The notes under the pieces are model-generated. The model was not told the DNA's origin, ran no database searches, and saw only the letters and a list, made by a program, of their open reading frames with translations. Made by a program: the position numbers and the translations under genes. A stretch of DNA of 52,424 nucleotides from a virus. The DNA is taken from positions 1-52,424 of the IMG/VR virus record IMGVR_UViG_3300045988_144509. One strand, given 5' to 3'. This document shows positions 4,095 through 40,798 of this stretch, in pieces. How positions within the stretch are numbered: position 1 is the first letter of the stretch; every line of letters begins with the position of its first letter.

Positions 4095-4277
4095 ATGAAT
4101 ATAAATATATTTCATGTATACTTAGTTCTAGCTATAGGTTTAATCATTCTTGATGGTATAGCTCTTTGGCAAGGACAGACAGACGGCTTCATGCTTATTA
4201 CTGGTGGTTTATTAGGTGCTTTAAAAGTAGAAATGCCTAATTCCGCTAAAGGAGGAAAAAGCGACGTTAAACAATAG
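4095..4277 (+). CDS. Holin (class with two TM helices)
   Basis: 60 aa, two hydrophobic helices, Lys-rich C-terminus; RBS GAGGTG. Precedes the endolysin gene. Confidence 0.5.
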   Translation: MNINIFHVYLVLAIGLIILDGIALWQGQTDGFMLITGGLLGALKVEMPNSAKGGKSDVKQ

Positions 4278-4956
4278 TTTAGTTTTAAAATATGAAGCAG
4301 GTGGCAATCCTGCAACAGTTAGCACAGGCGGTGGGGACTTAGGCGGTATTAGCTACGGTTCTTATCAGTTCAGTTCCGAAAGTGGTATCGTTGAAGATTT
4401 TGTTAATTGGTTATGTAATTATAAAGAAGATTGCTACGCTAATTATGGGCGAGTTCTAAAAAATGCTTATCCTGTAAACTCAACTAAATTCATTAACGAA
4501 TGGAAATCTATCGGAACTATTGACAGACAAGGTTTTCAAAAACTTCAAGATGAATACGCAGGCGATATGTATTATAATGCTGGCTATTGGGCTTTAAAAA
4601 ATCATGATTATGATATGGAAAAACACAGTGAAGCAATGAAATCTGTTTTATTTAGTCGCTCAATTCAATATGGTGCTGGCAATATGTACGAACTTTACAC
4701 GGAAGCAGTAAGGTTAATGGGATATCCTAATTTAAGTTATGTAGACCATAAAGCGTTTGATAAGCGAATGATTGAATGTATTTATGATTTCTTAATTCAA
4801 GAGTGTGATAACGCATATCAATTATCTAATGGTAATTACCATAGTCCTAAGGATTGGTGCAATGGCAGTTATACAGTCGTAAAAGTTGGCTTGCGAAATC
4901 GTTTCATCAATGAAAAGCAAGACGCATTAAATTTATTATCTTCGGAGGAAAAATAA
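4264..4956 (+). CDS. Endolysin with GH108-like lysozyme N-terminal domain; canonical start position occupied by ACG
   Basis: Frame 1 is open from 4231 to 4956 with no ATG/GTG/TTG until the M at 4567. Translation ..LNNSLVLKYEAGGNPATVSTGGGDLGGISYGSYQF.. resembles GH108 N-termini (FVLKWEGGY..DPGGAT.YGIT). A GGAGG at 4251-4255 lies 8 nt upstream of ACG 4264-4266, exactly where an ATG would be expected. 3' overlap with the holin is typical of lysis cassettes. Confidence 0.45.
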   Translation, partial: TLNNSLVLKYEAGGNPATVSTGGGDLGGISYGSYQFSSESGIVEDFVNWLCNYKEDCYANYGRVLKNAYPVNSTKFINEWKSIGTIDRQGFQKLQDEYAGDMYYNAGYWALKNHDYDMEKHSEAMKSVLFSRSIQYGAGNMYELYTEAVRLMGYPNLSYVDHKAFDKRMIECIYDFLIQECDNAYQLSNGNYHSPKDWCNGSYTVVKVGLRNRFINEKQDALNLLSSEEK

Positions 4957-5291
4957 TGGTTGATTGTTTTAGTCCTGATATCAAAAAAGATTTTTATGTT
5001 AGTGTAAAAGCTATTCATGCCGTAGAATGTGAAGCATGGAAAGATTTTAAAGGTCATCAAAAAGGTGATAGCGGTTATAAAATTTATTATCCAGATGGAT
5101 ATATTAGTTGGTGTCCTAAAGAAGTTTTTGAAAAACAATATCTAAAACTTGAAAGCGAAGAAGAAGTAAAAGATAATGATGTTCGCAACTATATTTATAG
5201 AAGCGGAATTGAAAAAGATGTTGATTTTTCTTATATTAAATTTTTATTAAAAGATATTTTAAAATGGGCAAAAGAAGGATTAAAAAGATAA
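4956..5291 (+). CDS. Hypothetical protein
   Basis: 111-aa ORF, ATGG overlap with the endolysin stop. Confidence 0.35.
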   Translation: MVDCFSPDIKKDFYVSVKAIHAVECEAWKDFKGHQKGDSGYKIYYPDGYISWCPKEVFEKQYLKLESEEEVKDNDVRNYIYRSGIEKDVDFSYIKFLLKDILKWAKEGLKR

Positions 5292-5519
5292 ATGGATAAA
5301 CTTATTTTATATTCTAAAGAACCAATTTCAGACGCTGACAAAAATAAAATTAAACAAATTTTTGAGCAGTCCAACAATCCGCATGAAAGCCTAATTTCAT
5401 CTATTGAACGTTATTCATTTATGCAAGGATATCAATTATTTTTTGACGGATTAGAAGCAAGAGAACGCTCTCAAGCTCCTTGCGAAGATTATGTCTACTT
5501 TAACGCAAATGATAACTAA
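5292..5519 (+). CDS. Hypothetical protein
   Basis: 75-aa ORF, tightly packed after the previous gene. Confidence 0.3.
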   Translation: MDKLILYSKEPISDADKNKIKQIFEQSNNPHESLISSIERYSFMQGYQLFFDGLEARERSQAPCEDYVYFNANDN

Positions 5520-6102
5520 TATCACAAATTTTATCAAAACGCACAAAAAGGCAGTCGTTATATCGGCTGTCTTAGCGTTTATTTTAATAGTCTTAATGTA
5601 TTTGTATCTACAAGATAAAAAAACTGTCAGCGAGCCTGTAAACGCTGTTAAAATCGAAAGTACTAATATTAAAGACAATGATACACTACAAAAAGACTTA
5701 GACATAAATCAAGATGAAGCAAGTCAAATAATTGACAAAATAGATGAAATTGAGCAAGGTAAAATTGAACCTGTAGCAACTACAACAATAAAATCTGAAA
5801 ATTTAGAAAGTGCAACTAATGAAGTTGTGGATAAAATTAATAATCAAGACACATCTTTACCAAAAGAAGCACTAGAAAAAACAGATAAAACTATTGTTAC
5901 AGATAACCCCAATCAAGATTATGATATTGGAGTTTATAAAATAGACTTAGAAAAAGATTATAAGCTTAAAGTTGGGCAAACAATTTATAAAAATGAAATA
6001 AATTGGGCTGTTGGATATGAGCATAAAAAATTAGAAGTAATAATACATGGTCAAGACAAAGTAAATGGTGTTACTGCTATGTATACTGTTAAGGAGTGGT
6101 AA
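5491..6102 (+). CDS. Membrane-anchored acidic protein
   Basis: 203 aa with N-terminal TM helix (AVVISAVLAFILIVLMYLYL) and an acidic, extended C-terminal region. Confidence 0.4.
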   Translation: MSTLTQMITNITNFIKTHKKAVVISAVLAFILIVLMYLYLQDKKTVSEPVNAVKIESTNIKDNDTLQKDLDINQDEASQIIDKIDEIEQGKIEPVATTTIKSENLESATNEVVDKINNQDTSLPKEALEKTDKTIVTDNPNQDYDIGVYKIDLEKDYKLKVGQTIYKNEINWAVGYEHKKLEVIIHGQDKVNGVTAMYTVKEW

Positions 6103-6377
6103 AAATGGAAAACCAAAACGAAATGAAAGAAACGTTAGAAAAATTAGGCACTGTTATAGCTATGGGTATAAATCTATATAAAAAAATAATAATGGGGCTT
6201 ATGGTTATTATTGTTACTCTTATTCTTACTATTGGCGGAGTTGTTGGCGGTTTTGTGTACTATTTATCACAGTATGACGTTGTTACTACAAACGTCGGGA
6301 GCATGGGTGATGATAATAATGTAGTACGTGGAGACCAAAATAATATGAACGCTGAAACAATTAACAATGGTAAATAA
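6096..6377 (+). CDS. Small membrane protein
   Basis: 93 aa with one TM helix (IIMGLMVIIVTLILTIGGVVGGFVYYL). Confidence 0.35.
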   Translation: MVKMENQNEMKETLEKLGTVIAMGINLYKKIIMGLMVIIVTLILTIGGVVGGFVYYLSQYDVVTTNVGSMGDDNNVVRGDQNNMNAETINNGK

Positions 6378-6379
6378 TA

Positions 6380-6826
6380 ATGCCTAGATATCGTTCAGAT
6401 GGTAGTGCTACTTTCGTAGAGAAAAGGCGAAAAGATGGCAAGGCTCGTGGTGTAATGTACCGCAAGCCTACCAACAACACATACTCTACAGATTTATCTT
6501 TGCAACGTGTTCAAATGGCAGATTTACAAATGGAACAAGATAAAAACAACAGCCTAGATTTAAAGTAGGTGTTAATCATACTAGAACATAGAAAGCAAGC
6601 AAAAGAATATATAGAAAACACAAACAAAACTAATCTAATATACGTCATAGAAGAATTGAATTTAGACGAGGATAAGAGAGAAGTACTAGACTTAAAATTT
6701 ATAAAAGGTTTAAAGAATTATCAAGTTGCTATGGAAACTAACCGCTCACTAGAGAACGTTAATAATATAGTTGGCAGGGCTTATGATAAAGTCTTTAGAT
6801 TAATAAAGAAAGGTATATTTAAATGA
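6380..6826 (+). pseudogene. Late transcriptional regulator-like protein (sigma-70 region-4-type HTH), single frame interrupted by in-frame TAG at 6566-6568
   Basis: ORFs 6380..6568 and 6569..6826 share one reading frame separated only by TAG. The downstream part has no SD or start of its own; its GTG start is part of the sequence directly after the stop. The C-terminal part contains a sigma-r4-like HTH (LKFIKGLKNYQVAMETNRSLENVNNIVGRAYDKV). The combined length of 148 codons fits ArpU/RinA-type late activators. Confidence 0.4.
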
Positions 6827-7290
6827 TATATAGAGCAAAAGGAAAAGACGATAAATTTAAATACGGATATAAACTAATAGTGCCTAAAAAACCATTCACT
6901 AGTCCTCCTGTGGGCAGTGAACCACAAGAGCCTACACTCATTAATTATATCATGCCTTCTGATACAGAAGAATATCGAGATGTAGAAGATTATTCAACGT
7001 TGGCGGTAGAAGTAGTCGAACCATTCCAGATGAATATAGGAACAGCAGGCAAAAACAGTGTTGAGCTTTACGAAGGCGATATCATAACAGCAACAATTTA
7101 TCCGTTCGAAAATTTTAACGGCTTGATTGTATGGAATGACAGCAAGAAAAGCTATATGTGTGAATATCGTAAAAAGCCAACATATATGGGCAAATCAATT
7201 TTTAACGGTATGCAAATACAACTAGAGTATCTAGCAAATGCTAATATAGATGTTATAGGAAATAATATTGACAATACTGATTTATTATGA
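6823..7290 (+). CDS. YopX-family protein
   Basis: 155 aa with the YopX-like core ..VELYEGDIITATIYPFENFNGLIVWND.. Confidence 0.45.
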   Translation: MIYRAKGKDDKFKYGYKLIVPKKPFTSPPVGSEPQEPTLINYIMPSDTEEYRDVEDYSTLAVEVVEPFQMNIGTAGKNSVELYEGDIITATIYPFENFNGLIVWNDSKKSYMCEYRKKPTYMGKSIFNGMQIQLEYLANANIDVIGNNIDNTDLL

Positions 7291-7332
7291 TATTATATAA
7301 GTGTAGATTTCATATAATACCTTCCTGTACTG

Positions 7333-7365
7333 GCGGTCAGATTAATTTCTGACTGCTATTTTTTA
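7333..7365 (+). terminator. Rho-independent terminator
   Basis: Stem gcggtcag / ctgactgc with a 9-nt loop, followed by a T-run. Confidence 0.5.
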
Positions 7366-7374
7366 TAAAAAGTG

Positions 7375-7403
7375 TTGACAATATATAAATTATATGTTAT
7401 ACT
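7375..7403 (+). promoter_or_regulatory. Sigma-A type promoter
   Basis: TTGACA-17 nt-TATACT. Confidence 0.5.
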
Positions 7404-7528
7404 ATATTCATAGTTATAGATTACTATTATTGCCATAATAAAATATCCTACCATTAAGGCAGTCTGAAAAGGCTGTCTTTTTTAATAATATACTACTAAT
7501 ATTTTTATTATAATAATTAGAAAAACTA

Positions 7529-7557
7529 TTGACAATAACTAAACATTATGCTACAAT
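7529..7557 (+). promoter_or_regulatory. Sigma-A type promoter
   Basis: TTGACA-17 nt-TACAAT. Confidence 0.5.
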
Positions 7558-7615
7558 ATAATTATTCTAAGCTTTAAATTTCTTTTTCATAACATTCCTT
7601 TCTTAAATTATTTTT

Positions 7616-7643
7616 AGCGGTTGGCTTCGGCTGACCGCTTTTT
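7616..7643 (+). terminator. Rho-independent terminator (UUCG tetraloop)
   Basis: gcggttggc-ttcg-gctgaccgc stem followed by TTTTT. Confidence 0.45.
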
Positions 7644-7693
7644 AATTTGTTTTATAGGTGTCGCCAATTTTGGATACACCCTATAAATATATA

Positions 7694-7722
7694 TTGATTA
7701 ATGTTTAATTATATGGTATAAT
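7694..7722 (+). promoter_or_regulatory. Sigma-A type promoter of the Rha gene
   Basis: TTGATT-17 nt-TATAAT, about 35 nt upstream of the 7758 ATG. Confidence 0.5.
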
Positions 7723-7757
7723 AATATATAAAAATTTTAATAAGAGAGGTTTACAAA

Positions 7758-8435
7758 ATGGATAAACAAATAAAAAGTTTAGAGAAAGATTTAAAATTGG
7801 TTGATGTAGTTAATAATGAAATCGTGGTATCAAGCAGACAAGTTGCTGAACACTTTGGAAAAGAACACCGTCATGTGCTTGATAGTATTCGTGATATTTT
7901 GGCTGCCGAAATTTCGGCTGCGAAATTTTACCATGAAACCACATTTGAAAATCGTGGTAAACAGTATCCAATGTATCTAATGGATAGGGACGGATTTTCA
8001 CTCTTGGTAATGGGATTTAGTGGCAAAGAAGCTTTAAAGTGGAAAATAAAATATATTGAAGCTTTTAACTCTATGGAACAGCGACTTAAATTAATCGAAC
8101 AGCAAGAAATAGGACGTTTAATCGAGCGTATGAAAGGGAAAGAAGTTCGTAGAACATTAACAGACGCAATTAAGGAAAATGTTCCCGAAACTCCACATAA
8201 AAGATTTATGTATAAGAACTTTACAGATTTAGCCTACAAGACAGTTTTTGGAATGAACACAAAACAAATGAGATATGATAGAGGTTTAGAAAAAGGCGAT
8301 AGCTTAAGAGACTGTTTTAATGAGCAAGAATTAAAACAAGTTAAAGGAGCTGAAAGCGTAATAAAAGGCTTCTTAGACATGGGATATTCTTACAGTGATG
8401 TAAAAGACATATTGGCAAAGAAATATATAAGTTAA
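7758..8435 (+). CDS. Phage regulatory protein, Rha family (N-terminal Rha domain + ORF6C-like C-terminus)
   Basis: 225 aa. N-terminus ..VVSSRQVAEHFGKEHRHVLDSIRDIL.. matches the Phage_pRha signature. RBS AGAGAGG. Confidence 0.6.
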   Translation: MDKQIKSLEKDLKLVDVVNNEIVVSSRQVAEHFGKEHRHVLDSIRDILAAEISAAKFYHETTFENRGKQYPMYLMDRDGFSLLVMGFSGKEALKWKIKYIEAFNSMEQRLKLIEQQEIGRLIERMKGKEVRRTLTDAIKENVPETPHKRFMYKNFTDLAYKTVFGMNTKQMRYDRGLEKGDSLRDCFNEQELKQVKGAESVIKGFLDMGYSYSDVKDILAKKYIS

Positions 8436-8442
8436 TAAAAAT

Positions 8443-8476
8443 AAGGGTGCTAGTTTAATTACTAGTACCCTTTTAG
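8443..8476. terminator. Bidirectional terminator between convergent genes
   Basis: Inverted repeat aagggtgctagt / actagtaccctt with a 6-nt loop and T-runs on both sides. Confidence 0.45.
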
Positions 8477-8487
8477 TTTGCAATAAA

Positions 8488-8739
8488 TTACATAGCATAT
8501 AAAGAATGGTGCTTAATATTTAAATCTTTTGTAGCTTCTTTTCTGAATAAATCATAATCCATTTCTACATAATTTAATATCAGCTCTCTTTTGTCATAAA
8601 ATATAAACTTTGTCATGTTGTCTTTCTTTCTGTACAATCCTAATATTTTGTACGACTCGTTTTCTTCTTTATTTATAAATTCGTATCCACTTTTATAATC
8701 CTCTTCTAACATTTCATCTAATAAACTCATTTTATACAC
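8488..8739 (-). CDS. Hypothetical protein
   Basis: 83-aa ORF; first gene of the minus-strand early block. Confidence 0.35.
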   Translation of the reverse strand: MYKMSLLDEMLEEDYKSGYEFINKEENESYKILGLYRKKDNMTKFIFYDKRELILNYVEMDYDLFRKEATKDLNIKHHSLYAM

Positions 8740-8741
8740 TC

Positions 8742-9146
8742 CTATTTATATTTATACTCTAATTTTAACTGCTTACAGATGTCATAAGCCTTGTAAAGCT
8801 CATCTAAAGAAAGCCAGCTAAAGTGGCAATCTTCTATACTTATGCCTAATCTATCTGCAAGTTTTTGATACAATTCTTTTCTTAAATTTCTGTTACCTCC
8901 TCGTCTTTTCCATATTTTATCAAACACTTCATGACATCTTTTTCTCATTTCCCTAGTTGGTTTGTCTGCAAGTACACCCAAAGCGCGTCTAAAATTATTC
9001 TTGTGTGTGCTTACACTAGCATGACATTTAGTACACACATAACAATAACCACTTCCATATCTATTACCATTTAATTTTTGTGTAGTAGTTAACATTACAT
9101 AACCACCACAAATGGGGCATTTTTTAGGATAATAATTAATTGTCAT
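8742..9146 (-). CDS. Zinc-finger protein (CxxC..CxxC)
   Basis: 134 aa with CPICGG...CYVCTKC and a further CH..C motif; basic. Confidence 0.4.
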   Translation of the reverse strand: MTINYYPKKCPICGGYVMLTTTQKLNGNRYGSGYCYVCTKCHASVSTHKNNFRRALGVLADKPTREMRKRCHEVFDKIWKRRGGNRNLRKELYQKLADRLGISIEDCHFSWLSLDELYKAYDICKQLKLEYKYK

Positions 9147-9159
9147 ATTTTTTCACTCC

Positions 9160-9429
9160 TTAAACCATTATATTGCATATCATATCTTTATTTATCATTC
9201 TATCTATTAATAAATCTAATTTTTCAAATGAATTAATATAGAATACCTTGTTGTTATCTTGAACGACTGTCATTAAATCATTTTCTACGTTTATTTTAAG
9301 GTTACCTATTTTCTTGCGGTAGCCTTTTTTAGTTCGTTTAAAACCTAATTCTTCAAGTTGTTCGGTTTTCTGAACTATATATTTTTTATTCAACGTTAGA
9401 ACCCTCCAATAAATAGATATAATAATCAT
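9160..9429 (-). CDS. Hypothetical protein
   Basis: 89-aa ORF. Confidence 0.3.
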   Translation of the reverse strand: MIIISIYWRVLTLNKKYIVQKTEQLEELGFKRTKKGYRKKIGNLKINVENDLMTVVQDNNKVFYINSFEKLDLLIDRMINKDMICNIMV

Positions 9430-9637
9430 TGTACTTATAATAATTGAATTTCATATCTATTGTTGATATACCTTCACTATCTAAAACTACATTTATATAT
9501 TTACTTGATTTATAAACGTAGCCTATATAAAAGCCACATTCTTTAGCTATATTTTCAATTCTGTTAAGAAATTCAATATAGCTGTAAGCTTTATATATTT
9601 TACCTTTTGTGAAGTTTTCTATTATAACACTGTTCAT
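9386..9637 (-). CDS. Hypothetical protein
   Basis: 83-aa ORF overlapping its neighbour by 44 nt. Confidence 0.3.
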   Translation of the reverse strand: MNSVIIENFTKGKIYKAYSYIEFLNRIENIAKECGFYIGYVYKSSKYINVVLDSEGISTIDMKFNYYKYNDYYIYLLEGSNVE

Positions 9638-9834
9638 TTTTTCACCTCATTAAGTTGTTTCAATACATCATAGAAGCTTTTCTCTGCTTCTTTATTGTTA
9701 TTATACCAAAATCCATTATGTTCACCATCTTTGTAATATATGTGAACACTGTTATCTTCAAGTCTTATTTCTTTTATTTGCTCCTTTCTCATTGCTATTT
9801 TCATATCGTTTCTACCTAATACACAAAACATCAT
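9634..9834 (-). CDS. Small protein, member 1 of tandem paralog array
   Basis: 66 aa ending ..EAEKSFYDVLKQLNEVKK; paralogous to 10019..10213, 10213..10422 and 10442..10666. Confidence 0.4.
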   Translation of the reverse strand: MMFCVLGRNDMKIAMRKEQIKEIRLEDNSVHIYYKDGEHNGFWYNNNKEAEKSFYDVLKQLNEVKK

Positions 9835-10022
9835 TTCACCTCTAATTCAGTATTTCTCATTAACTCAATCTGTTTATCTTTAAAATATTTGATTGAGTGT
9901 TCCAATAAAGCATAAACCAACAAACCTTTTGACACTTTGCATTTATCAGCAGTATCTTTAAGCCATTTATTCATAGTTTCATTTGTTCTAAACGAAACTA
10001 CAATATCTTTTGCTTCTATCAT
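9831..10022 (-). CDS. Ribbon-helix-helix (CopG/Arc-like) DNA-binding protein
   Basis: 63 aa; KDIVVSFRTNETMNKWLKDTADKCKVSKGLLVYALLEH fits the beta-strand plus two-helix RHH pattern. Confidence 0.35.
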   Translation of the reverse strand: MIEAKDIVVSFRTNETMNKWLKDTADKCKVSKGLLVYALLEHSIKYFKDKQIELMRNTELEVK

Positions 10023-22072: not shown

Positions 22073-22357
22073 ATGTGTATGGATTTTGTTAATGAAATGC
22101 AATTTAGTATTGATTATGCTGATTTTGAAGATATATGCAGACATTTTAATTTAAATGAAAGCACGAGAGAGGTTTTACTTAAAAGACTTAAATAAGTTGA
22201 AGGTATAGCTATATATAAAAATAAAACTCTTGTGCATTTGGATAAGTTTTACAATGCTATTATCGTGTTTAAAGATTTACAACCGATTAATGAAACAGTA
22301 AAAGAAGAAACTGCTAAAATTTTAGTTAATTTGATTAAGAAAGATGTTGACAATAAG
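22073..22357 (+). pseudogene. Hypothetical gene interrupted by in-frame TAA at 22193-22195
   Basis: A 40-codon ORF (MCMDFVNEMQF...LLKRLK) and a 54-codon open continuation (VEGIAIYKNK...DVDNK) lie in the same frame. The continuation has no start codon or SD. Confidence 0.35.
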
Positions 22358-22406
22358 TAAACAACTTGCTATAATGTAAATATAAACAATAAAGGAGATT
22401 AATAAA

Positions 22407-22732: not shown

Positions 22733-22836
22733 ATATCAAAGGCAGATAGGGACGTATACACCGACAAGAGTAAGCTCCTGCTCTTCTGCCTTATCTTTAT
22801 ATAACGGAGTAAAATATAATGACAGGAGTTTTCATC

Positions 22837-23574
22837 ATGGAACTAAAAATATTTGAAAATGAAAAATTCGGAAAAGTTAGAACTGCCATCTTAGACAATG
22901 ATGTATGGTTCGTAGGAAAAGATGTTGCTATCGCTTTAGGATATAGCAATCCATCAAATGCAGTTGTAAATCATGTTGATAGTGAAGATAAAACCACATA
23001 CCTAAATCAAGTATCTGGTTCAAATTACAAAACTAAAACAACTGTTATCAATGAAAGTGGTTTATATAGCTTGGTTCTTTCTTCTAAGTTACCAACAGCT
23101 AAAGAGTTTAAGCGTTGGATAACTAAAGACGTTATACCTTCTATTCGTAAATATGGTATGTATGCTACTATGGATACAATAGATAAGATGTTGGCAGACC
23201 CCAACAATGCTATAAAAATATTTACGGCTTTAAAAGAAGAAAGAGAAGCCAAAGAAAAAGCATTAAAGCTTGTGCAGGAAAAACAAGAAAAAATTGACTT
23301 GTTATCTCACTCTAAAAAGCTTTATACTACGTCTGAAATAGCTAAGGAGTTGGGTTTTAAATCACCTCAAGAGCTAAATAAAAAACTTTGCGATTTAAAT
23401 ATTCAATATAAAGTGAATAATTCTTGGCTATTGTATAGTAAATATTCCGACAAAGGTTATATTTCTATTAAGCAAGAAATAATAAGACATGGAAGTAAAT
23501 GCAGTCCAGTAGTTTATAATAGTAAATGGACGCAAAAAGGTAGAGAATTTATTTTAAAACTCTTGACAAATTGA
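22837..23574 (+). CDS. Antirepressor, Bro-N domain + KilAC C-terminal domain
   Basis: Bro-N signature MELKIFENEKFGKVRTAILDNDVWFVGKDVAIALGY..; RBS ACAGGAG 7 nt upstream of the ATG at 22837. The ORF track starts 18 nt earlier at 22819. Confidence 0.6.
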   Translation: MELKIFENEKFGKVRTAILDNDVWFVGKDVAIALGYSNPSNAVVNHVDSEDKTTYLNQVSGSNYKTKTTVINESGLYSLVLSSKLPTAKEFKRWITKDVIPSIRKYGMYATMDTIDKMLADPNNAIKIFTALKEEREAKEKALKLVQEKQEKIDLLSHSKKLYTTSEIAKELGFKSPQELNKKLCDLNIQYKVNNSWLLYSKYSDKGYISIKQEIIRHGSKCSPVVYNSKWTQKGREFILKLLTN

Positions 23575-30238: not shown

Positions 30239-30359
30239 TATCTTCAACCCTTTCTTTGTTCTGCATACTTTTATAATCACGCAAATATTTAGGTGGCTTA
30301 CGTGCTTCACTTATTGCTTTCCTATACATATTTATTATCATTTCGTCTATTTTATCCAT
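30192..30359 (-). CDS. Small basic protein (55 aa), not in ORF track
   Basis: AGGAGG 7 nt upstream of ATG 30359; MDKIDEMIINMYRKAISEARKPPKYLRDYKSMQNKERVEDN... Confidence 0.4.
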   Translation of the reverse strand: MDKIDEMIINMYRKAISEARKPPKYLRDYKSMQNKERVEDNVYKRKKDNNKHGSN

Positions 30360-30379
30360 TATTGAACCTCCTTTATCTT

Positions 30380-30408
30380 ATTATAGCATATTTTATAAAT
30401 TAATGCAA
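30380..30408 (-). promoter_or_regulatory. Repeated minus-strand promoter unit (copy 10)
   Basis: TTGCAT-17 nt-TATAAT on the minus strand. Confidence 0.5.
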
Positions 30409-30409
30409 T

Positions 30410-30435
30410 AGAAAAAGCACCCTTTCGAGTGCTTA
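30410..30435 (-). terminator. Terminator after the disrupted paralog gene
   Basis: agcac-cctttcgag-gtgct with a T-run on the minus strand. Confidence 0.4.
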
Positions 30436-30612
30436 AGTATTAATATATTTATTTTGCATTTTACTAATCTTTAACGGTTTATTTATTTCTGATATTAATT
30501 TACGTATAACACTAAGTGAATAATTAAGACAATCATCACCTGTTTTACTTTGGTTTTCATAATTATTTACAATTGTTTCAATCTATTTTTTCATTTTTTC
30601 CACGCTTACCAT
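30433..30612 (-). pseudogene. Paralog of 30612..30782 interrupted by in-frame TAG at codon 10
   Basis: MVSVEKMKK-TAG-IETIVNNYENQSKTGDDCLNYS... aligns with MASVEELNKAIEIISSHCESFDNCEENY... from the neighbouring gene. The TAG sits where the paralog has Ala. The downstream 49 codons are open and lack their own start. Confidence 0.4.
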
Positions 30613-30782
30613 TATTTTTCGTCTTCTTCACATACATTAAACCAAGATGAAGGCGGTTCTATTTCTCCTTTTATTGGGCAGTTTACAATAAATGGGCAGT
30701 AATTTTCCTCACAATTATCAAAACTTTCGCAATGACTGCTAATTATTTCAATTGCCTTATTTAATTCTTCCACGCTTGCCAT
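30612..30782 (-). CDS. Small Cys-rich protein (56 aa), not in ORF track
   Basis: AGGAGG RBS; MASVEELNKAIEIISSHCESFDNCEENYCPFIVNCPIKGEIEPPSSWFNVCEEDEK. Confidence 0.45.
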   Translation of the reverse strand: MASVEELNKAIEIISSHCESFDNCEENYCPFIVNCPIKGEIEPPSSWFNVCEEDEK

Positions 30783-31585: not shown

Positions 31586-31759
31586 CTACTTCACCTCAAA
31601 TTCTTCTATATAAGATTTAAAACAATCGTGATAACTATGCTCTTTTATTAAATCTCCTTTTACTTTTTCAGCCTTCGCTTTTTCTTTGTACACACCGTAT
31701 GTGTATTGCTTTGCATATTCATAATCTTTGATTACTACGCTAACAATATATACTTTCAT
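31586..31759 (-). CDS. MKVYI-module small protein (57 aa), not in ORF track
   Basis: MKVYIVSVVIKDYEYAKQYTYGVYKEKAKAEKVKGDLIKE...; paralog of 31418..31585 and of the N-terminus of 30795..31202. Confidence 0.4.
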   Translation of the reverse strand: MKVYIVSVVIKDYEYAKQYTYGVYKEKAKAEKVKGDLIKEHSYHDCFKSYIEEFEVK

Positions 31760-31761
31760 TA

Positions 31762-31940
31762 CCATAACCCTACCTTTTCAAAATACTCATCTACTGTCAT
31801 ACCATCAATTCTAGCAACACCGTCTTTTGATGGTTTGTTAGGTATATTATATTTTTTAAGTTCCTCATCAAGCAATTCAAAAGCTCTTTTTAATCTTAAA
31901 TCACTTTCCTTTATTTCCTCATCTGTAAAATTATCATCAT
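31762..31940 (-). pseudogene. Small gene with apparent 1-nt frameshift near its start
   Basis: SD GGTAGGTGA + ATGATG at 31940 opens a frame that stops after 9 codons. The 61-codon open frame (..DDNFTDEEIKESDLRLKRAFELLDEELKKYNIPNKPSKDGVARIDGMTVDEYFEKVGLW) is in the -1 frame. One extra A in the run ataa would fuse them. Confidence 0.35.
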
Positions 31941-31958
31941 ATCACCTACCTTAATATT

Positions 31959-31987
31959 ATTATAGCACATATTGAAAAATAATGCAA
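31959..31987 (-). promoter_or_regulatory. Repeated minus-strand promoter unit (copy 11)
   Basis: TTGCAT-17 nt-TATAAT on the minus strand. Confidence 0.5.
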
Positions 31988-31988
31988 A

Positions 31989-32014
31989 TAAAAATGGCGG
32001 TAATTAAACCGCCA
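31989..32014 (-). terminator. Terminator downstream of 32021..32932
   Basis: tggcggt-aattaa-accgcca with a T-run on the minus strand. Confidence 0.5.
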
Positions 32015-32020
32015 ATATTG

Positions 32021-34658: not shown

Positions 34659-34698
34659 AAATTTATTCCTTTTATCGCTAAATTTTTATAGAAAGGTG

Positions 34699-34727: not shown

Positions 34728-34733
34728 ATAAAC

Positions 34734-35380
34734 ATAGACAACTTAATATAGCCTAGATGGGAAACTGTTCGATTGATTTGGGGGCGAAAGCTCCCAATAC
34801 ATAATTTGATATCTTTATCAAGTATACATTCTAACCATGTGTAAACGTTCTAATCAAACCTCATGGAGTGCTGGTTTGTTGAGTAGGGTTGTAGTGGGAT
34901 ACTGCTATAATTGAGCTTTTATTTATTGGTAACAGTAAATAACAATTGGGTAAACCAAAAGAAGTACAGCACGTACAAATTATAACGCTAGTTAAAACAC
35001 AAGTTGTATGGCGGTGATAATAAACGACCCTGTGGGTAATAATCAGCTATGCCATTTAGTTTACAACTAAATCGAGCTAACTGAAATGTAAAAGTAAACC
35101 GTGTGGCTTTGAAGTATAGAAATATACTATAACATATTACTTGGTTAAAGTAGCATAATAGCCTATTTGATGATAATACGTAATTTATTAATTACTCTTG
35201 TAATCCGAATGATATGTGAAATTTGCAGACAAACATTTCTGCGTGAGGTAAAAGGGGGCAAGAAGTTATAAGGTAGCTCCTTATAGCTCGGACTTGTCTT
35301 TCTCACTGGTTGAATAAGCTAGAAGTTATAAAGAGTAGAGCGAAAGTTCATAATGTATACTTAATAAAGATATCAAATAA
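34734..35380 (+). ncRNA. Candidate large noncoding RNA / about 650-nt untranslated precursor upstream of two tRNAs
   Basis: No ORF of meaningful length. GNRA-capped helix ggggc-GAAA-gctccc at 34781-34796, hairpins taagg-tagct-cctta and gcaga-caaacatt-tctgc, and a long-range gtgag...ctcac pairing. Consensus promoter upstream and tRNAs immediately downstream. Confidence 0.35.
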
Positions 35381-35457
35381 ACGTGAGTGGTGGAATAGGC
35401 ATACACACAAGTCTTAGAAACTTGATTTTGAAGGTTCGAGTCCTTTCTCACGTACCA
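35381..35457 (+). tRNA. tRNA with anticodon UAG (Leu by anticodon; atypical short variable arm, A73 discriminator)
   Basis: Acceptor acgtgag/ctcacgt; T-arm gaagg-TTCGAGT-ccttt; anticodon stem caagt/acttg with loop cTTAGaa; encoded 3' CCA. Confidence 0.55.
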
Positions 35458-35460
35458 TAT

Positions 35461-35537
35461 GATGATATAGCCAAAATGGTTAAGGCGAAGGTCTGCAAAA
35501 CCTTTATTTCTCGGTTCAAGTCCGAGTATCATCTCCA
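35461..35537 (+). tRNA. tRNA-Cys (anticodon GCA)
   Basis: Acceptor gatgata/tatcatc with U73; D-stem gcc/ggc with GG in the loop; anticodon stem aaggt/acctt with loop cTGCAaa; T-arm ctcgg-TTCAAGT-ccgag; encoded CCA. Confidence 0.65.
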
Positions 35538-35612
35538 CGAAAGAAATAAGCAAGACATCTTAACAAAAATAATAACTTTACGACATCTTGCACAATTAAA
35601 GCACTTAGTATA

Positions 35613-36011
35613 ATGCTAGGTGCTTATTTTGTATATAAGGAGTTCGGAAATGTGAACAAATACGATAAATTAATTGATTGGTTATGCTATAAATATAGTA
35701 TACTTCATAAGTTAGAAATAAGACATCAGAAAAGCATTAAAGTTAGATATAGAAAAAGAAATTACATAACTAGAATAGTAAATAAGAAAAAGAGTTATGT
35801 TTTTAGATTACCGAATTTTGATAAATTGACGTTTATTAGTGATGAAGATAAACATAAATTAGTAATAAGTGAATTTATCAGATTTTTCTTAATTGGTGCG
35901 GTTTATAAGAAAATTAAGAATGAAAACCATTTAAGAAAGGTAATAATGAACAACACAGAAAAACTATATTATCTGTATAATAAGGAGGTGTTAGCAGGTG
36001 GCAAAGTATGA
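35613..36011 (+). CDS. Hypothetical basic protein upstream of the terminase
   Basis: 132 aa, Lys/Arg-rich; a long ORF for AT-rich DNA. Confidence 0.35.
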   Translation: MLGAYFVYKEFGNVNKYDKLIDWLCYKYSILHKLEIRHQKSIKVRYRKRNYITRIVNKKKSYVFRLPNFDKLTFISDEDKHKLVISEFIRFFLIGAVYKKIKNENHLRKVIMNNTEKLYYLYNKEVLAGGKV

Positions 36012-36459
36012 CCAATGGAATACAGAAGAAGGCTTTATTAAAATTGAAGGCTGGGCAAAAGATGGATTAACAAATGAGCAGATAGCAAACAAAATGGAAA
36101 TAAACAGAATTACATTATATAATTGGTCTTTAAAAAATCCTAAGATTGCAGAAGCTCTCAAAAAAGGTAAAGATGTGATTGATAGAAAAGTTGAGAACTC
36201 TCTCTTAAAACGTGCGTTAGGTTATGAATATGACGAAACGACTACAATCACAGATAGCGAAGGCAACGAAACAACTAAGGTTATAAGAAAACATGTAATA
36301 CCAGATACAACGGCTCAAATATTCTGGCTCAAGAATAGAAAACCTACAGAATGGCGAGATAAACGAGAATACAAAGATAATGAAGCGCTTGAAAAACTCG
36401 ACAAAATTCTTAGTAAAATACCTAATAAATTAGAAAAAGGTATTAGTAAAGATGTTTAA
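35998..36459 (+). CDS. terS: Terminase small subunit
   Basis: 153 aa; N-terminal HTH (GLTNEQIANKMEINRITLYNWSLKNPKIAEALKKGK) typical of TerS; overlaps the TerL start. Confidence 0.65.
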   Translation: MAKYDQWNTEEGFIKIEGWAKDGLTNEQIANKMEINRITLYNWSLKNPKIAEALKKGKDVIDRKVENSLLKRALGYEYDETTTITDSEGNETTKVIRKHVIPDTTAQIFWLKNRKPTEWRDKREYKDNEALEKLDKILSKIPNKLEKGISKDV

Positions 36460-38047
36460 TTTTAGTAAAAACCAGCTAGAATATTTAAATGACGCTTGCC
36501 ATAGATGGAACATAAAAAGCGGTGCAGTAAGAAGTGGTAAGACTTACCTTGATATAGCTGTTGTTATACCATGTAGAATAAGAGCAGTAGCAGGAAAAGA
36601 AGGTTTGACAGTATTTCTAGGCAATACCAAAGGTACAATACAACGTAACGTAATTGAACCACTTCAGCAAATGTACGGTAAAAACTTAGTTAGTAGTATA
36701 AGAGCAGACAATACCGCCACAATATTCGGAGAAAAAGTTTACTGCTTAGGTGCAAGCAAAATAAATCAAGTTGATGTTTTGCGAGGTATGTCTATAAAGT
36801 ATTGTTATGGTGATGAAGTTGTAACATGGTGTAAAGAAGTATTTGAAATGCTTAAATCACGTCTTGATAAATCTTATAGTAGGTGTGATTTAACTTGCAA
36901 CCCAGATAGTCCTTTACATTGGTTTAAAGAATTTATTGATAGTGATGTTGATAAATACTTGCAAGAATACACGATTGATGATAATCCATTCTTACCAGAA
37001 GAATTTGTAAGAAACCTTAAAAAAGAGTATGAAGGCTCCGTTTGGTATGATAGGCTTATATTAGGGAAATGGGTACGTGCAGAAGGTTTAGTTTATCCTA
37101 TGTTTTATAAAGATAAACATTGCTTTATTGAACCGCCAACAAATAAATATGAGCAGTATTATATAAGTGCGGACTATGGTATATTAAATCCATTTAGTGC
37201 TGGCTTATGGGGTAAATATAATGGCAAATGGTACAGAATTGCAGAATATTACCATGATGGACGTAAAACGAATAAACAATACACAGATGAAGAATATCAC
37301 ACTAAACTATTAGACCTTGCAGGTGATTTGCCAATTAGAAGCATAATTATCGACCCTTCTGCAAGTTCCATGATTGCTACTATCAGAAAGCATGGAAATT
37401 TTAATATTAGGAAAGCAAAAAATGACGTATTAGAAGGAATTAGAAACACCGCCACAGAATTAAACAAAGGTAACATACTCATAAACTCTAAATGTAAAGC
37501 CTTCATCAATGAAATTGAGGGGTATAGCTGGGACAAGGATAACACAAAAGAGGACAAGCCACTTAAAGAAAAGGACCACTGTCTTACAGGTGATACAATA
37601 ATAAATACAATAAATGGTGATATTCCTATTAAAGATTTAGTAGGTAAAAGTGGACTTGTTAAGGCTTATGACACATATAACAATAAAGTTGTAACTGCTA
37701 AATTTAAAGATGTTAGACTTACACAGAAAAACGCAAGAGTATTTGAGGTGAAGCTTAATAGCGGTAAAATAATAAAAGCAACTGCTGAACACCCTATGTA
37801 CACTAAAAGAGGGTGGGTAATGGTAAGAGATTTAAGAACAGATGATACTATCTTAGATATAAATATTGGATATTCTTATATCTATAGTATAACTTTTGAT
37901 AGCTTTCAAGATGTGTACAATATGGAAGTTGAAAAATATCATAACTTTTCTATAAATGGCGGTTTGATAGTTCATAACTGCATGGACGATTTTAGATATT
38001 TTGTTAATACAGTAGTAGCACGTGGCAATACGTTTGAGGTTGCTTAA
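36452..38047 (+). CDS. terL: Terminase large subunit containing a mini-intein
   Basis: 531 aa. ATPase N-terminal region with Walker A-like SGAVRSGKT and a C-terminal nuclease region. A 133-aa Hint-domain insertion (CLTGDT...IVHN|C) interrupts the C-terminal part. Confidence 0.7.
   Translation: MFNFSKNQLEYLNDACHRWNIKSGAVRSGKTYLDIAVVIPCRIRAVAGKEGLTVFLGNTKGTIQRNVIEPLQQMYGKNLVSSIRADNTATIFGEKVYCLGASKINQVDVLRGMSIKYCYGDEVVTWCKEVFEMLKSRLDKSYSRCDLTCNPDSPLHWFKEFIDSDVDKYLQEYTIDDNPFLPEEFVRNLKKEYEGSVWYDRLILGKWVRAEGLVYPMFYKDKHCFIEPPTNKYEQYYISADYGILNPFSAGLWGKYNGKWYRIAEYYHDGRKTNKQYTDEEYHTKLLDLAGDLPIRSIIIDPSASSMIATIRKHGNFNIRKAKNDVLEGIRNTATELNKGNILINSKCKAFINEIEGYSWDKDNTKEDKPLKEKDHCLTGDTIINTINGDIPIKDLVGKSGLVKAYDTYNNKVVTAKFKDVRLTQKNARVFEVKLNSGKIIKATAEHPMYTKRGWVMVRDLRTDDTILDINIGYSYIYSITFDSFQDVYNMEVEKYHNFSINGGLIVHNCMDDFRYFVNTVVARGNTFEVA
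37580..37978 (+). mobile_element. Mini-intein (Hint domain, no homing endonuclease) within terL
   Basis: N-terminal splice block CLTGDTIINT. Block B ATAEHPMYT (Thr/His). C-terminal block ..GGLIVHN followed by +1 Cys (CMDD). 399 nt, in frame. Confidence 0.7.
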
Positions 38048-38059
38048 AGAGGTGATAAA

Positions 38060-39502
38060 GTGTTTTTTGATAATGATGATGTAACAGAAATAAATGAGAA
38101 TATAAAAAATAATGCTCCAATGGATATTGATACAATAGTTAATCTTGAAATTGGTGAGCATGTAAACTCTTTGGAATACAAAAAGATTATTAAATCTGAA
38201 CAGTACTATAAAAACAATACAGATATAAATATTAATGGAAGAATGGTTCTAGGCGAAAATGGGATTGAAAGAGCTGAAAATGTAGCAGATAATAGATTAT
38301 GTCATGACTATTTTTCTCTTATTGTAGACCAAAAAATACAGTATCTATTAAGTAAAGAGTGGACAGTGGAAAGCGACGACGATAATATTTTGGAGCAGTT
38401 AAACAAAATATTTAATCAGGATTTCAAAAACAAATTCCAAAGAGTAGCAAAAGACGCTGTAGTTAAATATTATGGCTGGTTATTCGTATACCCACAAGGA
38501 AATGATTTAAAATTCCAAAGGTTAGAAGCTAAAAACGTGATACCTTTTTGGTCAGACATTGATAAAACTGAATTAAATGCAGTTATATACTTTTATTCTA
38601 AGGTTGAGTATGAAGGCACGCAAAAGAAGGAAAAAAGATACGCTCAATACTGGGATAATACAGGGGTAATTTTCTATGAAGCCAACGACTCGGCACGATA
38701 TGAAAGAACAAATAAAAGCGGTATGGTAAGTTTTGAAGGTAAGCCGTACAACTGGGAAAAGATACCATTTATTCCAATAAAATACAATGACGAAGATATA
38801 TTTTTATTAGATAAAATTAAATCTTTAATTGATGACTACGACAGACAGACAAGCCGAAATAGTAACGGACTAGAAGATGACTTGAATAAAACTTTAGTTG
38901 TAAAAAACTATGATGGAACAAATGCAGGACAATTAAGAAGAGATGTAAAGACACATAAAATAATTAAGGTTAGTGATGATGGCGGAGTAGACGTGCTAGA
39001 TTTAACTGTAGATGTTGATAACTCAAATAGCCATTTAGATAGATTGAAAAAAGATATATTCATGTTCGGTCGTGCAGTAGATATTACTAGCGAATTTGGA
39101 GCAAATGCAAGTGCAGAAGCTAGACAATATTTATACGCAAGTTTAGACATGGACTGCAATACACTAGAAAGAAATTGCAAAAATGCACTACATTCTTTAT
39201 TATGGTTCATATCTAAATATTACAACATGGGCGATATTCAAGACACAGTCGATTTTGTATTTAATCGTGATGTTATTACAAATGAAGCTAGTGCAATAGA
39301 TATGTGTGTTAAATCTCAAGGTGTTCAAGGTTTGTCTACTCGTACAATTCTAAGCAATCACCCATTTGTGAAAAATGTTGATGATGAACTTAACACATGG
39401 AAGCAGGAACAAAAAGAAAACGCACAAATGCAAGATGATTTATACGACAATCCTTCTTTTGGCAATAATGACGATAATAGCAATGGTGGTATAGATGAAT
39501 AA
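38060..39502 (+). CDS. Portal protein
   Basis: 480-aa ORF (GTG start, RBS AAGAGGTGA) directly after TerL; size and acidic C-terminus typical of portals. Confidence 0.6.
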   Translation: MFFDNDDVTEINENIKNNAPMDIDTIVNLEIGEHVNSLEYKKIIKSEQYYKNNTDININGRMVLGENGIERAENVADNRLCHDYFSLIVDQKIQYLLSKEWTVESDDDNILEQLNKIFNQDFKNKFQRVAKDAVVKYYGWLFVYPQGNDLKFQRLEAKNVIPFWSDIDKTELNAVIYFYSKVEYEGTQKKEKRYAQYWDNTGVIFYEANDSARYERTNKSGMVSFEGKPYNWEKIPFIPIKYNDEDIFLLDKIKSLIDDYDRQTSRNSNGLEDDLNKTLVVKNYDGTNAGQLRRDVKTHKIIKVSDDGGVDVLDLTVDVDNSNSHLDRLKKDIFMFGRAVDITSEFGANASAEARQYLYASLDMDCNTLERNCKNALHSLLWFISKYYNMGDIQDTVDFVFNRDVITNEASAIDMCVKSQGVQGLSTRTILSNHPFVKNVDDELNTWKQEQKENAQMQDDLYDNPSFGNNDDNSNGGIDE

Positions 39503-40511
39503 TGCGGAGTATTGGCAAAAGCGAGCTGAACAAGATGTATTAAAAGTAGAAAAAGAAATTGACAAAATTAATGATGATTTAAAAGTAGCTTTTACTACTA
39601 CTACACAAAAGTTAATAAATGAAATATATAAGTTTTATTCTCTTTATGATTTAACAGATTATAGCAATATGTATAAAATATTGTCTGCTGATGAAGCAAA
39701 AGAATTAAGAGATAAAGCAAGAAAAGTTTATAAAACTGCATGCAGTGAAGAACTTAAATCATTAGCTAAAAACATGAAAGGCTCTTACAGAATACAGGCT
39801 ATAAAAGCTTTACTATTTAACTTAATATCTGATATTGAAGAACTTTACCAACTACAACAAGATGACTACGACAATGACTTACCTTCTATTTATAAAGCTA
39901 TGTATTATAAAAAGATTTACGATATGCAGGTTGGTACAGGTTTTGGATATGATGTAGATAGGTTAGAAGATGGCAAGGTTAAACAAGCTGTATCTCAAAG
40001 TTGGCTAGGCGAGAATTATTCGGAACGTATATGGAGTAATAGATATAAGTTATCTCAAGTTATTCAGCAAGAGTTGCCACAAGCAATAATACAAGGTCAA
40101 AATCCTAAACAGCTTGCTAAAACAATACAAAAAAGAATGAATACATCTTATTTTAATGCTGAACGATTAGCAAGAACAGAATATTTACACGTATTAAATG
40201 AAGCTAATTATAAAGCAATGAACGGCAGTGGATTATTTAAAAAATATCAATACATGGCAACGCTAGATTACAGAACATCTCAAATTTGTAGAGATATGGA
40301 CGGAAAAGTTTTTGATATGAGTAAAAAGCAAACAGGGGTAAATTACCCACCATTACACCCTAATTGCAGAAGTACAACAGCACCATATTTTAAAGATTTA
40401 CAAGGTACAAGAATTGCCAAAACAAAAGAAGGCACGTATTATGAAATAGATAGAAATATAACGTATAGAGAATGGGAAAAAATGCAAAAATTGGAGGAAA
40501 ATAATAAATGA
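39495..40511 (+). CDS. Minor head protein (SPP1 gp7 / Mu F-like head morphogenesis protein)
   Basis: 338 aa after the portal; conserved C-terminal block ..RTEYLHVLNEANYKAMNGSG..YQYMATLDYRTSQICRDMDGKVF..PPLHPNCRST typical of the Phage_Mu_F family. Confidence 0.6.
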   Translation: MNNAEYWQKRAEQDVLKVEKEIDKINDDLKVAFTTTTQKLINEIYKFYSLYDLTDYSNMYKILSADEAKELRDKARKVYKTACSEELKSLAKNMKGSYRIQAIKALLFNLISDIEELYQLQQDDYDNDLPSIYKAMYYKKIYDMQVGTGFGYDVDRLEDGKVKQAVSQSWLGENYSERIWSNRYKLSQVIQQELPQAIIQGQNPKQLAKTIQKRMNTSYFNAERLARTEYLHVLNEANYKAMNGSGLFKKYQYMATLDYRTSQICRDMDGKVFDMSKKQTGVNYPPLHPNCRSTTAPYFKDLQGTRIAKTKEGTYYEIDRNITYREWEKMQKLEENNK

Positions 40512-40798
40512 TTATTAAAGCCAGAAAAAAGCCTGTAGTTATAGAAGCTGTACAATTAAAATAAAGTTATGATAGTATAAGAGAATGTCTTTCTTTTTTA
40601 GGCAGGATATACGAAGAATATACAGAAGCTTCTATAAACAACATGATAGCGGAAGTAAAACAAGATGAAGGTATTAATATATTCACTTTAGAAGGTACAC
40701 ATCATGCAAGCTTTGGAGATTACATTATAAAAGGTGTGAAAGGCGAGTTCTACCCATGTAAACCAGATATTTTTGAAAAAACTTACGATAAAATATAA
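40508..40798 (+). pseudogene. Small conserved phage gene interrupted by in-frame TAA at codon 19
   Basis: [32 protein letters not shown]...[27 protein letters not shown] form one continuous frame (ATGA overlap with the upstream gene). The downstream 77 codons lack a start or SD. Confidence 0.4.

Follow-up and report, generated by a model that had tools for sequence, protein, structure and literature searches.

Do several apparent interruptions of genes in one phage genome reflect a single phenomenon, or did they arise for different reasons? The question is raised by a DNA of 52,424 nucleotides (nt), IMG/VR virus record IMGVR_UViG_3300045988_144509, which is analyzed here over its full length (hereafter the window). 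An initial annotation had described six gene-disrupting lesions within it, comprising in-frame stop codons at positions 6566, 22193, 30583 and 40562, a 1-nt frameshift near position 31935, and an ACG codon in place of a start codon at 4264. All six sequence features are present in the window, all represent genuine sequence, and none resembles an assembly error. Comparison with related phages makes it very probable that the sites have mixed causes and do not represent one phenomenon. The description as lesions holds for four sites (22193, 30583, ~31935 and 40562), which would reflect the decay of accessory genes, but not for 6566, which would be a boundary between two genes, nor for 4264, where an endolysin gene carrying ACG at its start position appears not to be inactivated. 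The overall picture is one of ordinary accessory-gene decay, and only the lineage-wide ACG start of the lysin goes beyond the ordinary, as a mildly novel feature.

The window derives from a metagenome assembly, in which it is MEGAHIT contig ena:ERZ27229662:k119_81682 (52,424 bases). Positions 1-119 are repeated at 52306-52424, corresponding to the k=119 overlap of a circular MEGAHIT assembly and leaving 52,305 base pairs (bp) of unique genome. With a G+C content of ~30%, the window encodes a contractile-tail virion module, a terminase, a portal protein, DnaB, SSB, ERF, a methyltransferase, and many small open reading frames (ORFs), and it looks like the complete circular genome, ~52.3 kilobases (kb) in length, of an uncultured gut myovirus-like phage. 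Closely related free contigs of 50-53 kb recur in many human metagenomes; where individual contigs or proteins must be told apart below, they are given L and P numbers, respectively.

Interrupted accessory genes

Three of the sites are in-frame stop codons within small genes, as follows.

22073-22360, plus strand: apparent pseudogene of a 96- to 98-codon accessory gene, with a CAA-to-TAA change at 22193-22195 (codon 41); start ATG at 22073; intact in L103 and L105
30433-30612, minus strand: apparent pseudogene of an accessory gene of ~55-59 codons, with a Glu-to-TAG change at 30585-30583 (codon 10); start ATG at 30612
40508-40798, plus strand: apparent pseudogene of a conserved phage gene of ~96 codons (phrog_419 family), with a GAA-to-TAA change at 40562-40564 (codon 19); the family match spans the stop

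These sites are evidently pseudogenes created by nonsense mutation in dispensable accessory genes, because each gene is uninterrupted in close relatives, which have a sense codon where the window has its stop. The gene at 22193 retains a CAA glutamine codon in two relatives, which encode proteins of 98 (L103) and 120 (L105) amino acids (aa); the stop is carried by three contigs besides the window, as TAA in L107 and as TAG in L106 and L108. For the gene at 30583, a paralogue of the adjoining gene at 30612-30782, intact homologues (P0221-P0225) read MASVEKMKKEIETIVNNYE, with glutamate at the stop position, whereas the window reads MVSVEKMKK, the stop, and then IETIVNNYE. The phrog_419 match extends across the 40562 stop with an E value of 1.7e-31, and the closest intact homologues (P0001-P0005; 88-94% identity) read QLKE[NS]YDSIRECL, again with glutamate at the stop position, the residue from which the GAA codon of the relatives is deduced. 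A further 26 homologues from IMG/VR are uninterrupted, with K, D, N, H or E at this position in the more distant ones. The 40562 TAA and the surrounding 350 nt are identical in 20 contigs from many samples.

We considered whether zero divergence around 40562 might be a sign of selection and dropped the idea, since divergence within the lineage is strongly patchy and many 500-nt bins are at zero. When positions 35000-48047 of the window are compared with L001, L003 and L005, many bins with 0 mismatches lie beside bins with 25-58, the high-mismatch bins including 38500-40000 and 47500-48000. Such mosaic divergence, as far as sequence comparison can tell, indicates frequent recombination between lineages.

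The fourth site involves two overlapping features on the minus strand.

31759-31941, minus strand: 3′ remnant (60 codons plus stop) of a 75-codon accessory gene, apparently left startless by a deletion; identified by tblastn, with the intact gene in L103
31911-31940, minus strand: out-of-frame 9-codon fusion ORF, ATGATGATAATTTTAC/AGATGAGGAAATAA, with its junction at the microhomology TTTAC (31929-31925)

The minus-strand ATGATG at 31940-31935 is out of frame with the 60-codon body (31941-31762), an arrangement that had been described as a 1-nt frameshift. The comparison with relatives points to a deletion junction and not to a 1-nt indel within an otherwise intact gene. The intact form of the 75-codon gene, found in L103, reads MDNKNSSIGSSWDDFEKEAFTDEEIKE. 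L001 and L004 share with the window a terminator, a promoter, a Shine-Dalgarno sequence and ATGATGATAATTTTAC; in these two contigs they lead into a 65-codon gene (MMIILPRNK...), behind which lie ~2 kb of additional small genes that are absent from the window. The window instead passes, after TTTAC, straight into the body of the 75-codon gene. The ~31935 site is thus best read as the scar of a ~2-kb illegitimate deletion at a 5-nt microhomology. The copy of the 75-codon gene in L001 and L004 (L001 3245-3480, minus strand) carries an independent TCA-to-TAA change together with a 1-nt insertion. Because the hits in these contigs and in the window are independent, the 75-codon gene is apparently being lost repeatedly.

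Searches of relatives with the window's proteins revealed further private lesions, which are given here, like those of L001, as read in the assembled contigs. L009 has a stop in its pRha gene and, in a 69-codon gene, a frameshift. Frameshifts also affect a 171-codon gene of L093 and an 89-codon gene of L098, and the L098 copy of the 69-codon gene bears a stop as well as a frameshift. Decay of small accessory genes appears to be the norm in this phage group. Separately, L099 exhibits one frameshift near the 3′ end of its sheath-initiator gene.

We propose that the three nonsense mutations and the deletion stump would be tolerated in small accessory genes because these are dispensable, and that selection would purge such mutations from essential genes. 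The structural genes of the window are uninterrupted, as the initial annotation had emphasized, as would be expected under purifying selection; since no more than four of the sites are true lesions, the absence of lesions from the core virion genes is not by itself statistically striking.

Several observations weigh against this account of the four sites. The stop-bearing copies are identical downstream of the stops, leaving zero substitutions to count for relaxed selection. The exchange of TAA for TAG is the only difference among the four stop-bearing copies of the 22193 gene over 360 nt, although this variation may be due to chance. Low-level read-through may take place at the three premature stops, or the truncated products may be functional. 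Finally, the sites at 30583 and ~31935 have been seen in two assemblies only (one from MEGAHIT and one scaffold assembly), which probably derive from the same sample.

The TAG at 6566 and the ACG at 4264

The remaining two sites were thought to damage a regulator and an endolysin. The first involves two genes.

6380-6568, plus strand: 62-codon gene, apparently independent, ending with TAG at 6566-6568
6569-6826, plus strand: 85-codon gene for a sigma-70 region-4-like regulator, with a GTG start directly after the TAG (stop-start)

Comparative evidence identifies TAG 6566 as the probable true terminator of the 62-codon gene, and the regulator as a separate and intact gene, the two sharing a frame. 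The same TAG is present in nine other contigs, all from relatives, which points to separate ORFs and not to a lesion. The string GATTTAAAGTAGGTGTTAATCATA, which spans the TAG-GTG junction, is invariant in nine relatives and in L116, even beside divergent upstream alleles: relatives carry strongly divergent alleles of the 62-codon gene that converge ~15 nt before the TAG. The ratio of nonsynonymous to synonymous polymorphism (pN/pS) is 0.30 for the 62-codon gene and 0.07 for the 85-codon gene. Matches to sigma and regulator families in PHROG are the same for the 85-aa part alone as for the 62+85 concatenation (E values from 9e-5 to 4e-3), and the 62-aa part scanned alone has no PHROG family match. 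The Pfam models for sigma-70 region 4 (PF08281/PF04545) give 19.5 bits, below the cutoff of 25.7, so the 85-aa protein resembles this fold family in sequence without membership being established.

An exhaustive search with the 85-aa part returned 31 remote homologues, 27 of which are free-standing at 76-83 aa, with alignments that begin at residue 2-6 of the homologue and residue 5-9 of the query (residue 17 once). L114 likewise carries a colinear stand-alone homologue of 82 aa. The sole match of 148 aa, P0226, is encoded at positions 88-534 of L116 (logan:SRR32653615_730), a 1.5-kb contig whose DNA has TAG at the junction, read as glutamine only under code 15. A genuine TAG-to-CAG fusion allele was therefore ruled out, P0226 being an artefact of code-15 gene calling, and database entries of this kind could mislead surveys of recoding. 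A single 148-aa regulator interrupted by the TAG was ruled out as well, given that there is no true fused homologue and that 27 of the 31 homologues have 76-83 aa. Translation of the regulator would probably be coupled to that of the 62-codon gene by termination and reinitiation. It had been stated that the segments downstream of the lesions lack starts of their own; this fails at 6569, where GTG follows the TAG in frame. At 4264, the frame has no ATG, GTG or TTG before 4567.

The features at the latter site are the following.

4095-4277, plus strand: 60-codon ORF for a small, holin-like protein with two transmembrane segments; its 3′ end overlaps the lysin frame and holds the lysin Shine-Dalgarno sequence
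4248-4255, plus strand: putative Shine-Dalgarno sequence AAAGGAGG, whose GGAGG core ends 8 nt before ACG 4264
4264-4956, plus strand: endolysin gene with a VgrG3-like C-terminal muramidase domain; first codon ACG where homologues have ATG

The 60-aa protein has no Pfam or PHROG match. It is found as an identical copy in 65 collection blocks, with a pN/pS of 0.065, and a role as holin is suggested by its position and hydrophobic segments. The lysin frame is open from 4231. Counted from the ACG (4264-4266), its product matches PF21277 (T6SS VgrG3-like C-terminal peptidoglycan hydrolase) with 112.8 bits against a cutoff of 27 (E=2.4e-32), lysin residues 8-191 corresponding to positions 6-171 of the 183 in the profile; a start at the first canonical ATG, at 4567, would lose half of this domain. 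Homologous lysins with 72-82% identity begin MLNNSLVLKYEAGG, the consensus being MLNNSL[VI][LM]KYEAGG, and the window reads (ACG)T-LNNSLVLKYEAGG, with the ACG aligned to the homologues' initial methionine. At this point the DNA of L114 is AAGAGGTGATACAA-ATG-TTA-AAT-AAT. Since L114 has ATG at the same position, the ACG appears to occupy the site of an ancestral ATG, altered by a T-to-C transition.

The ACG and its Shine-Dalgarno sequence are invariant in 13 relatives (L092-L101, L110-L113), whose contigs come from other samples. Nine relatives with differences elsewhere share an unchanged segment AAAGGAGGAAAAAGCGACGTTAAACAATAG, and four further relatives (L110-L113) retain the ACG despite three base changes just upstream. 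Among seven distinct sequences, pN/pS for positions 4267-4566 is 0.10 in the lysin frame, as compared with 1.7 and 2.6 in the other frames, and the value downstream of the first canonical ATG is also 0.10, the same as in the 5′ part. Because pN/pS is low from the ACG to the first canonical start, the lysin appears to be functional, which argues that the full-length protein is made and needed. No other endolysin-type domain is reported among the called genes of the window. The spacing of the Shine-Dalgarno core is typical of this genome, in which perfect GGAGG cores lie 7-12 nt from the start, mostly 7-8 nt.

The lysin is thus most likely initiated at the ACG. We propose that ATG changed to ACG in an ancestor of the lineage, and that the initiator tRNA would now initiate weakly at this codon, with assistance from the perfect Shine-Dalgarno sequence that precedes it by 8 nt and from coupling to the ORF that overlaps the lysin gene from upstream. 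In E. coli, green fluorescent protein beginning with methionine is obtained at a low level from an ACG start (Hecht et al., bioRxiv 10.1101/063800). Two other candidate starts were tried and set aside, namely a TTG in L110-L113 and an upstream TTG in P0267; neither has a Shine-Dalgarno sequence, while the ACG and its own are retained.

Certain facts count against initiation at the ACG. In E. coli, this codon belongs to a group of 57 whose measured initiation was 0.1-1% of that at AUG (Hecht et al., bioRxiv 10.1101/063800). Sixteen of the 22 AGGAGG hexamers on both strands of the window have a canonical start 4-10 nt downstream (at 7-10 nt in 15 cases), and that of the lysin is among the other six. 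The argument for initiation is comparative, with translation deduced from it, and a +1 slip on GGA-AAA-AGC, right after the Shine-Dalgarno-like GGAGG, would also lead into the lysin frame.

A stronger version of the proposal holds that ACG is selectively maintained as the natural start of the lysin, keeping its synthesis very low. A C-to-T reversion of ACG to ATG would be silent in the overlapping 60-codon ORF (GAC to GAT), yet none is seen in the sampled lineage, which comes from many human gut samples and in which synonymous sites of the lysin gene have diverged by 12-15% while the ACG persisted. Given the sampled diversity, the missing reversion is suggestive, not significant, and we offer selective maintenance as a possibility that we would not yet favor. 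Were it true, the codon would act as a translational throttle on a lysis gene. Initiation at ACG, if confirmed, would by itself suggest that the dosage of the lysin can be set by start-codon choice, and would provide a further natural case among the very few non-canonical start codons listed for bacteria. A limited literature search found no natural bacterial or phage ACG start, which is weak negative evidence.

Alternatively, the lysin might be produced by programmed +1 frameshifting from the 60-codon membrane ORF, the ribosome slipping on A-AAA-A at 4256-4260 to yield a membrane-anchored fusion in which the ACG is an internal threonine codon. Such a route would avoid dependence on a codon at which initiation is very weak in E. 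coli (Hecht et al., bioRxiv 10.1101/063800), and the local arrangement would permit it: the lysin frame, open from 4231, is +1 relative to the 60-codon ORF and overlaps its 3′ end by 47 nt, GGAGG lies 1 nt ahead of the AAA codon at the putative slip site, and the overlap is invariant in nine relatives. However, the A-site codon of the putative shift would be AGC, which is neither a stop nor an obviously hungry codon, and in L110-L113 the A-run is shortened (GGA-AAA-GAC) while the arrangement is still kept. Homologous lysins of ~230 aa are free-standing and not fusions. As the ACG falls exactly at the homologues' ATG, with a Shine-Dalgarno spacing of 8 nt that is typical of the genome, substitution of a start codon is the simpler explanation, and we regard frameshifting as unlikely.

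With initiation at ACG as the preferred reading, the window contains what appears to be a functional, selected endolysin gene whose only plausible start is an ACG that all sampled members of this widespread lineage of gut phages have kept. Because of this start, the lysin is mis-annotated in public data, where standard gene callers truncate it to 113-129 aa or choose implausible starts. Among the 15 members listed for its 34-member 90% cluster, lengths are 113, 129, 223 and 242 aa, and none is the 230-aa, ATG-started form. The public entries P0257-P0270 and DAZ69238.1 are either fragments (113/129 aa) or have starts giving 223/242 aa, none of which fits the N-terminus of the homologues.

It had also been argued that damage to a late activator and an endolysin speaks against simple dispensability of the affected genes. 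The regulator appears to be a separate, intact 85-codon gene and the endolysin is under purifying selection over its full length; as neither of these supposedly essential genes is broken, the argument dissolves.

Explanations for the set, and the genome around it

Three more general explanations could be applied to the sites as a set. The first is that the window represents a decaying integrated prophage that no longer needs viral replication. Several pseudogenes in one 52-kb element, and the presence of anti-repressor-type genes (Bro-N/ANT, pRha) that are common in temperate phages, would be in keeping with this. The contig, however, closes on itself through its 119-nt overlap, the relatives assemble as free 50-53 kb contigs in many samples, and the structural, packaging, replication and lysis genes all appear to be intact and under selection. 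No integrase or recombinase family is reported among the called genes of the window, and a search with the terminase through 185,579 species-representative genomes gave no match, and hence neither a prophage relative nor a host. Of the earlier suggestion of a prophage accumulating mutations in dispensable genes, the mutations in dispensable genes stand, at four sites that are intact in relatives, whereas a decaying integrated prophage is improbable.

The second explanation is regulated read-through, in which a host or phage suppressor decodes the in-frame TAA and TAG codons so that full-length proteins are made. Beyond each premature stop, the frame runs on as far as the original gene end and shows no second lesion, the codon at 22193 varies between TAA and TAG yet stays a stop, and the 40562 stop allele is widespread, occurring in 20 contigs. 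The open frames can be explained by recency, since over 350 nt the stop-bearing copies show 100% identity and the lineage diverges in patches. The replaced residues are glutamine once (22193) and glutamate twice (30583 and 40562), which fits no single decoding rule, and in relatives these gene families are also seen to decay through frameshifts and deletions. TAA and TAG terminate 73 and 10, respectively, of the 108 genes. Only two tRNAs are encoded in the window, with anticodons UAG and GCA, neither of which decodes a stop codon, and no suppressor tRNA (anticodon CUA, UUA or UCA) is found there. Known recoded phages reportedly bear in-frame stops in late genes, whereas the stop-bearing genes here are small accessory ones. 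The initial judgment that code reassignment is unlikely is supported by the terminators and tRNAs of the window; the accompanying suggestion of programmed read-through or frameshifting as regulation finds no suppressor tRNA, normal terminators and mixed replaced residues, and is very improbable. A single recoding or suppression mechanism for all six sites was ruled out by the same tRNA content, terminator usage and mixture of residues.

Least probable of all are the sequencing or assembly errors once suggested for a low-coverage contig, since, even though the window is a metagenome assembly and 30583 and ~31935 are known from two assemblies of what is probably one sample, the other four sites (4264, 6566, 22193 and 40562) recur base-for-base in contigs of other samples and assemblers, ~31935 joins sequences 2 kb apart at a 5-nt microhomology in a manner not expected from a k=119 assembler, and substitution errors would be unlikely to produce precisely a stop codon in each of three genes.

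We compiled a list of 108 ORFs, which together occupy 90% of the window; the start codons are ATG (80), GTG (18) and TTG (10), and TGA terminates the 25 genes that end in neither TAA nor TAG. Four of the 13 non-coding gaps longer than 120 nt match sites under discussion (4278-4566, 30311-30611, 31766-32020 and 40512-40642). The remaining gaps comprise 190 nt ahead of the first ORF and intergenic stretches, among which the region of the ROOL RNA and tRNAs described below was the only one looked at individually. The gap scan brought up no other unexplained stretch like those four. A scan of relatives' ORFs against the window revealed no interrupted gene beyond 22193, and by these measures the list of sites appears to be essentially complete.

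Exact-protein look-ups with the products of 5491-6102, 921-1814 and 4567-4956 returned only the window's contig and its twin, and the product of 22819-23574 had nothing on record. The relatives were found by means of short, highly conserved proteins, namely products of 60, 74 and 51 aa. A scan of IMG/VR with the 40562 gene yielded homologues of at most 59% identity, which served for the family alignment and are too remote to be relatives, and a megablast search of phage records with a 15-kb stretch of the window gave no match. The capsid protein shares 49% identity with uncultured fecal phage(s) and 32% with Clostridium perfringens phages, cultured phages being very distant. As the capsid matches only remote phages, no annotated close relative exists.

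Other features of the genome are listed here.

34811-35368, plus strand: full-length ROOL RNA (Rfam RF03087), 300.6 bits against a gathering score of 99.1, model positions 1-574
35381-35457, plus strand: tRNA with anticodon UAG (reads CUA), called Leu; 77 nt, with a 5-nt variable region and without the long arm typical of bacterial tRNA-Leu
35461-35537, plus strand: tRNA-Cys (GCA)
36452-38047, plus strand: large terminase, with an intein/HINT-like segment at about aa 391-509
46464-47014, plus strand: tail assembly chaperone

Most of the largest non-coding gap is taken up by the ROOL RNA, which immediately precedes the two tRNA genes and the packaging module. The terminase segment scores 40.3 bits with PF14890 (Intein_splicing; cutoff 35.8) and 31.3 with PF07591 (PT-HINT; cutoff 27.7), and the large terminase protein is identical in nine contigs. 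In the tail assembly chaperone, the ORF ends at 46844 and the -1 frame is open to about 47014 after A-runs (AAAAAAA at 46818 and AAAAAAC at 46835). A -1 frameshift in this gene is canonical in tailed phages, and is the only likely programmed recoding event in the window, being unrelated to the six sites.

Comparison with known systems

In-frame stops and missing starts in metagenomic phage genomes invite talk of recoding, and it is a useful caution that comparison with relatives resolves five of the six sites here as mundane. In stop-codon-recoded phages, TAG or TGA is reportedly reassigned and a suppressor tRNA is said to be encoded by the phage. The window resembles such genomes in having in-frame TAG and TAA codons inside recognizable phage genes, and one contig of the lineage has even been called with code 15. 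Unlike recoded phages of the code 15 or code 4 type, it has just three in-frame stops in ~108 genes, all of them small accessory genes, and it combines two different replaced amino acids with normal use of TAG and TAA as terminators and no phage suppressor tRNA.

For the lysin, the nearest parallels are the AUU starts of E. coli infC and pcnB, together with measured initiation at ACG: in each case, a near-cognate codon one base from AUG is combined with a good Shine-Dalgarno sequence in a functional gene. Of the non-canonical codons, only AUU is confirmed to serve naturally as a start in E. coli (Hecht et al., bioRxiv 10.1101/063800). The lysin differs from infC and pcnB in having ACG instead of AUU as its probable start, and, whereas infC is autoregulated, nothing here points to autoregulation.

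The frameshift of prfB offers a second comparison. In prfB, +1 shifting is stimulated by a Shine-Dalgarno sequence just ahead of the shift site, by about 3 nt, and here too a Shine-Dalgarno-like element lies right before a slippery codon, whose A-run permits re-pairing, in a frame overlap, with the downstream frame at +1. The prfB site has an in-frame stop and a CUU shift codon, whereas GGAGG-A-AAA-AGC has no stop, AAA in place of CUU, and a sense codon in the A site; the lysin ORF, unlike prfB, retains the remains of its own start exactly where homologues initiate. Plant organelle genes provide a third comparison, since they possess ACG starts that are restored to AUG by C-to-U editing of RNA, and they share with the lysin a conserved genomic ACG at the AUG position of a functional gene. 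Bacteria and phages are not known to possess such C-to-U editing of mRNA, and the window shows no sign of it.

The accessory regions of mosaic tailed phages, in which pseudogenes and deletion scars occur among "moron" or early genes, represent the closest match to the window as a whole. There as here, small genes of variable modules are broken or lost in some lineages and intact in others, breakpoints coincide with short stretches of homology, and divergence is distributed in patches. Four of the six sites belong with this kind of accessory-gene decay, from which they show no substantial difference.

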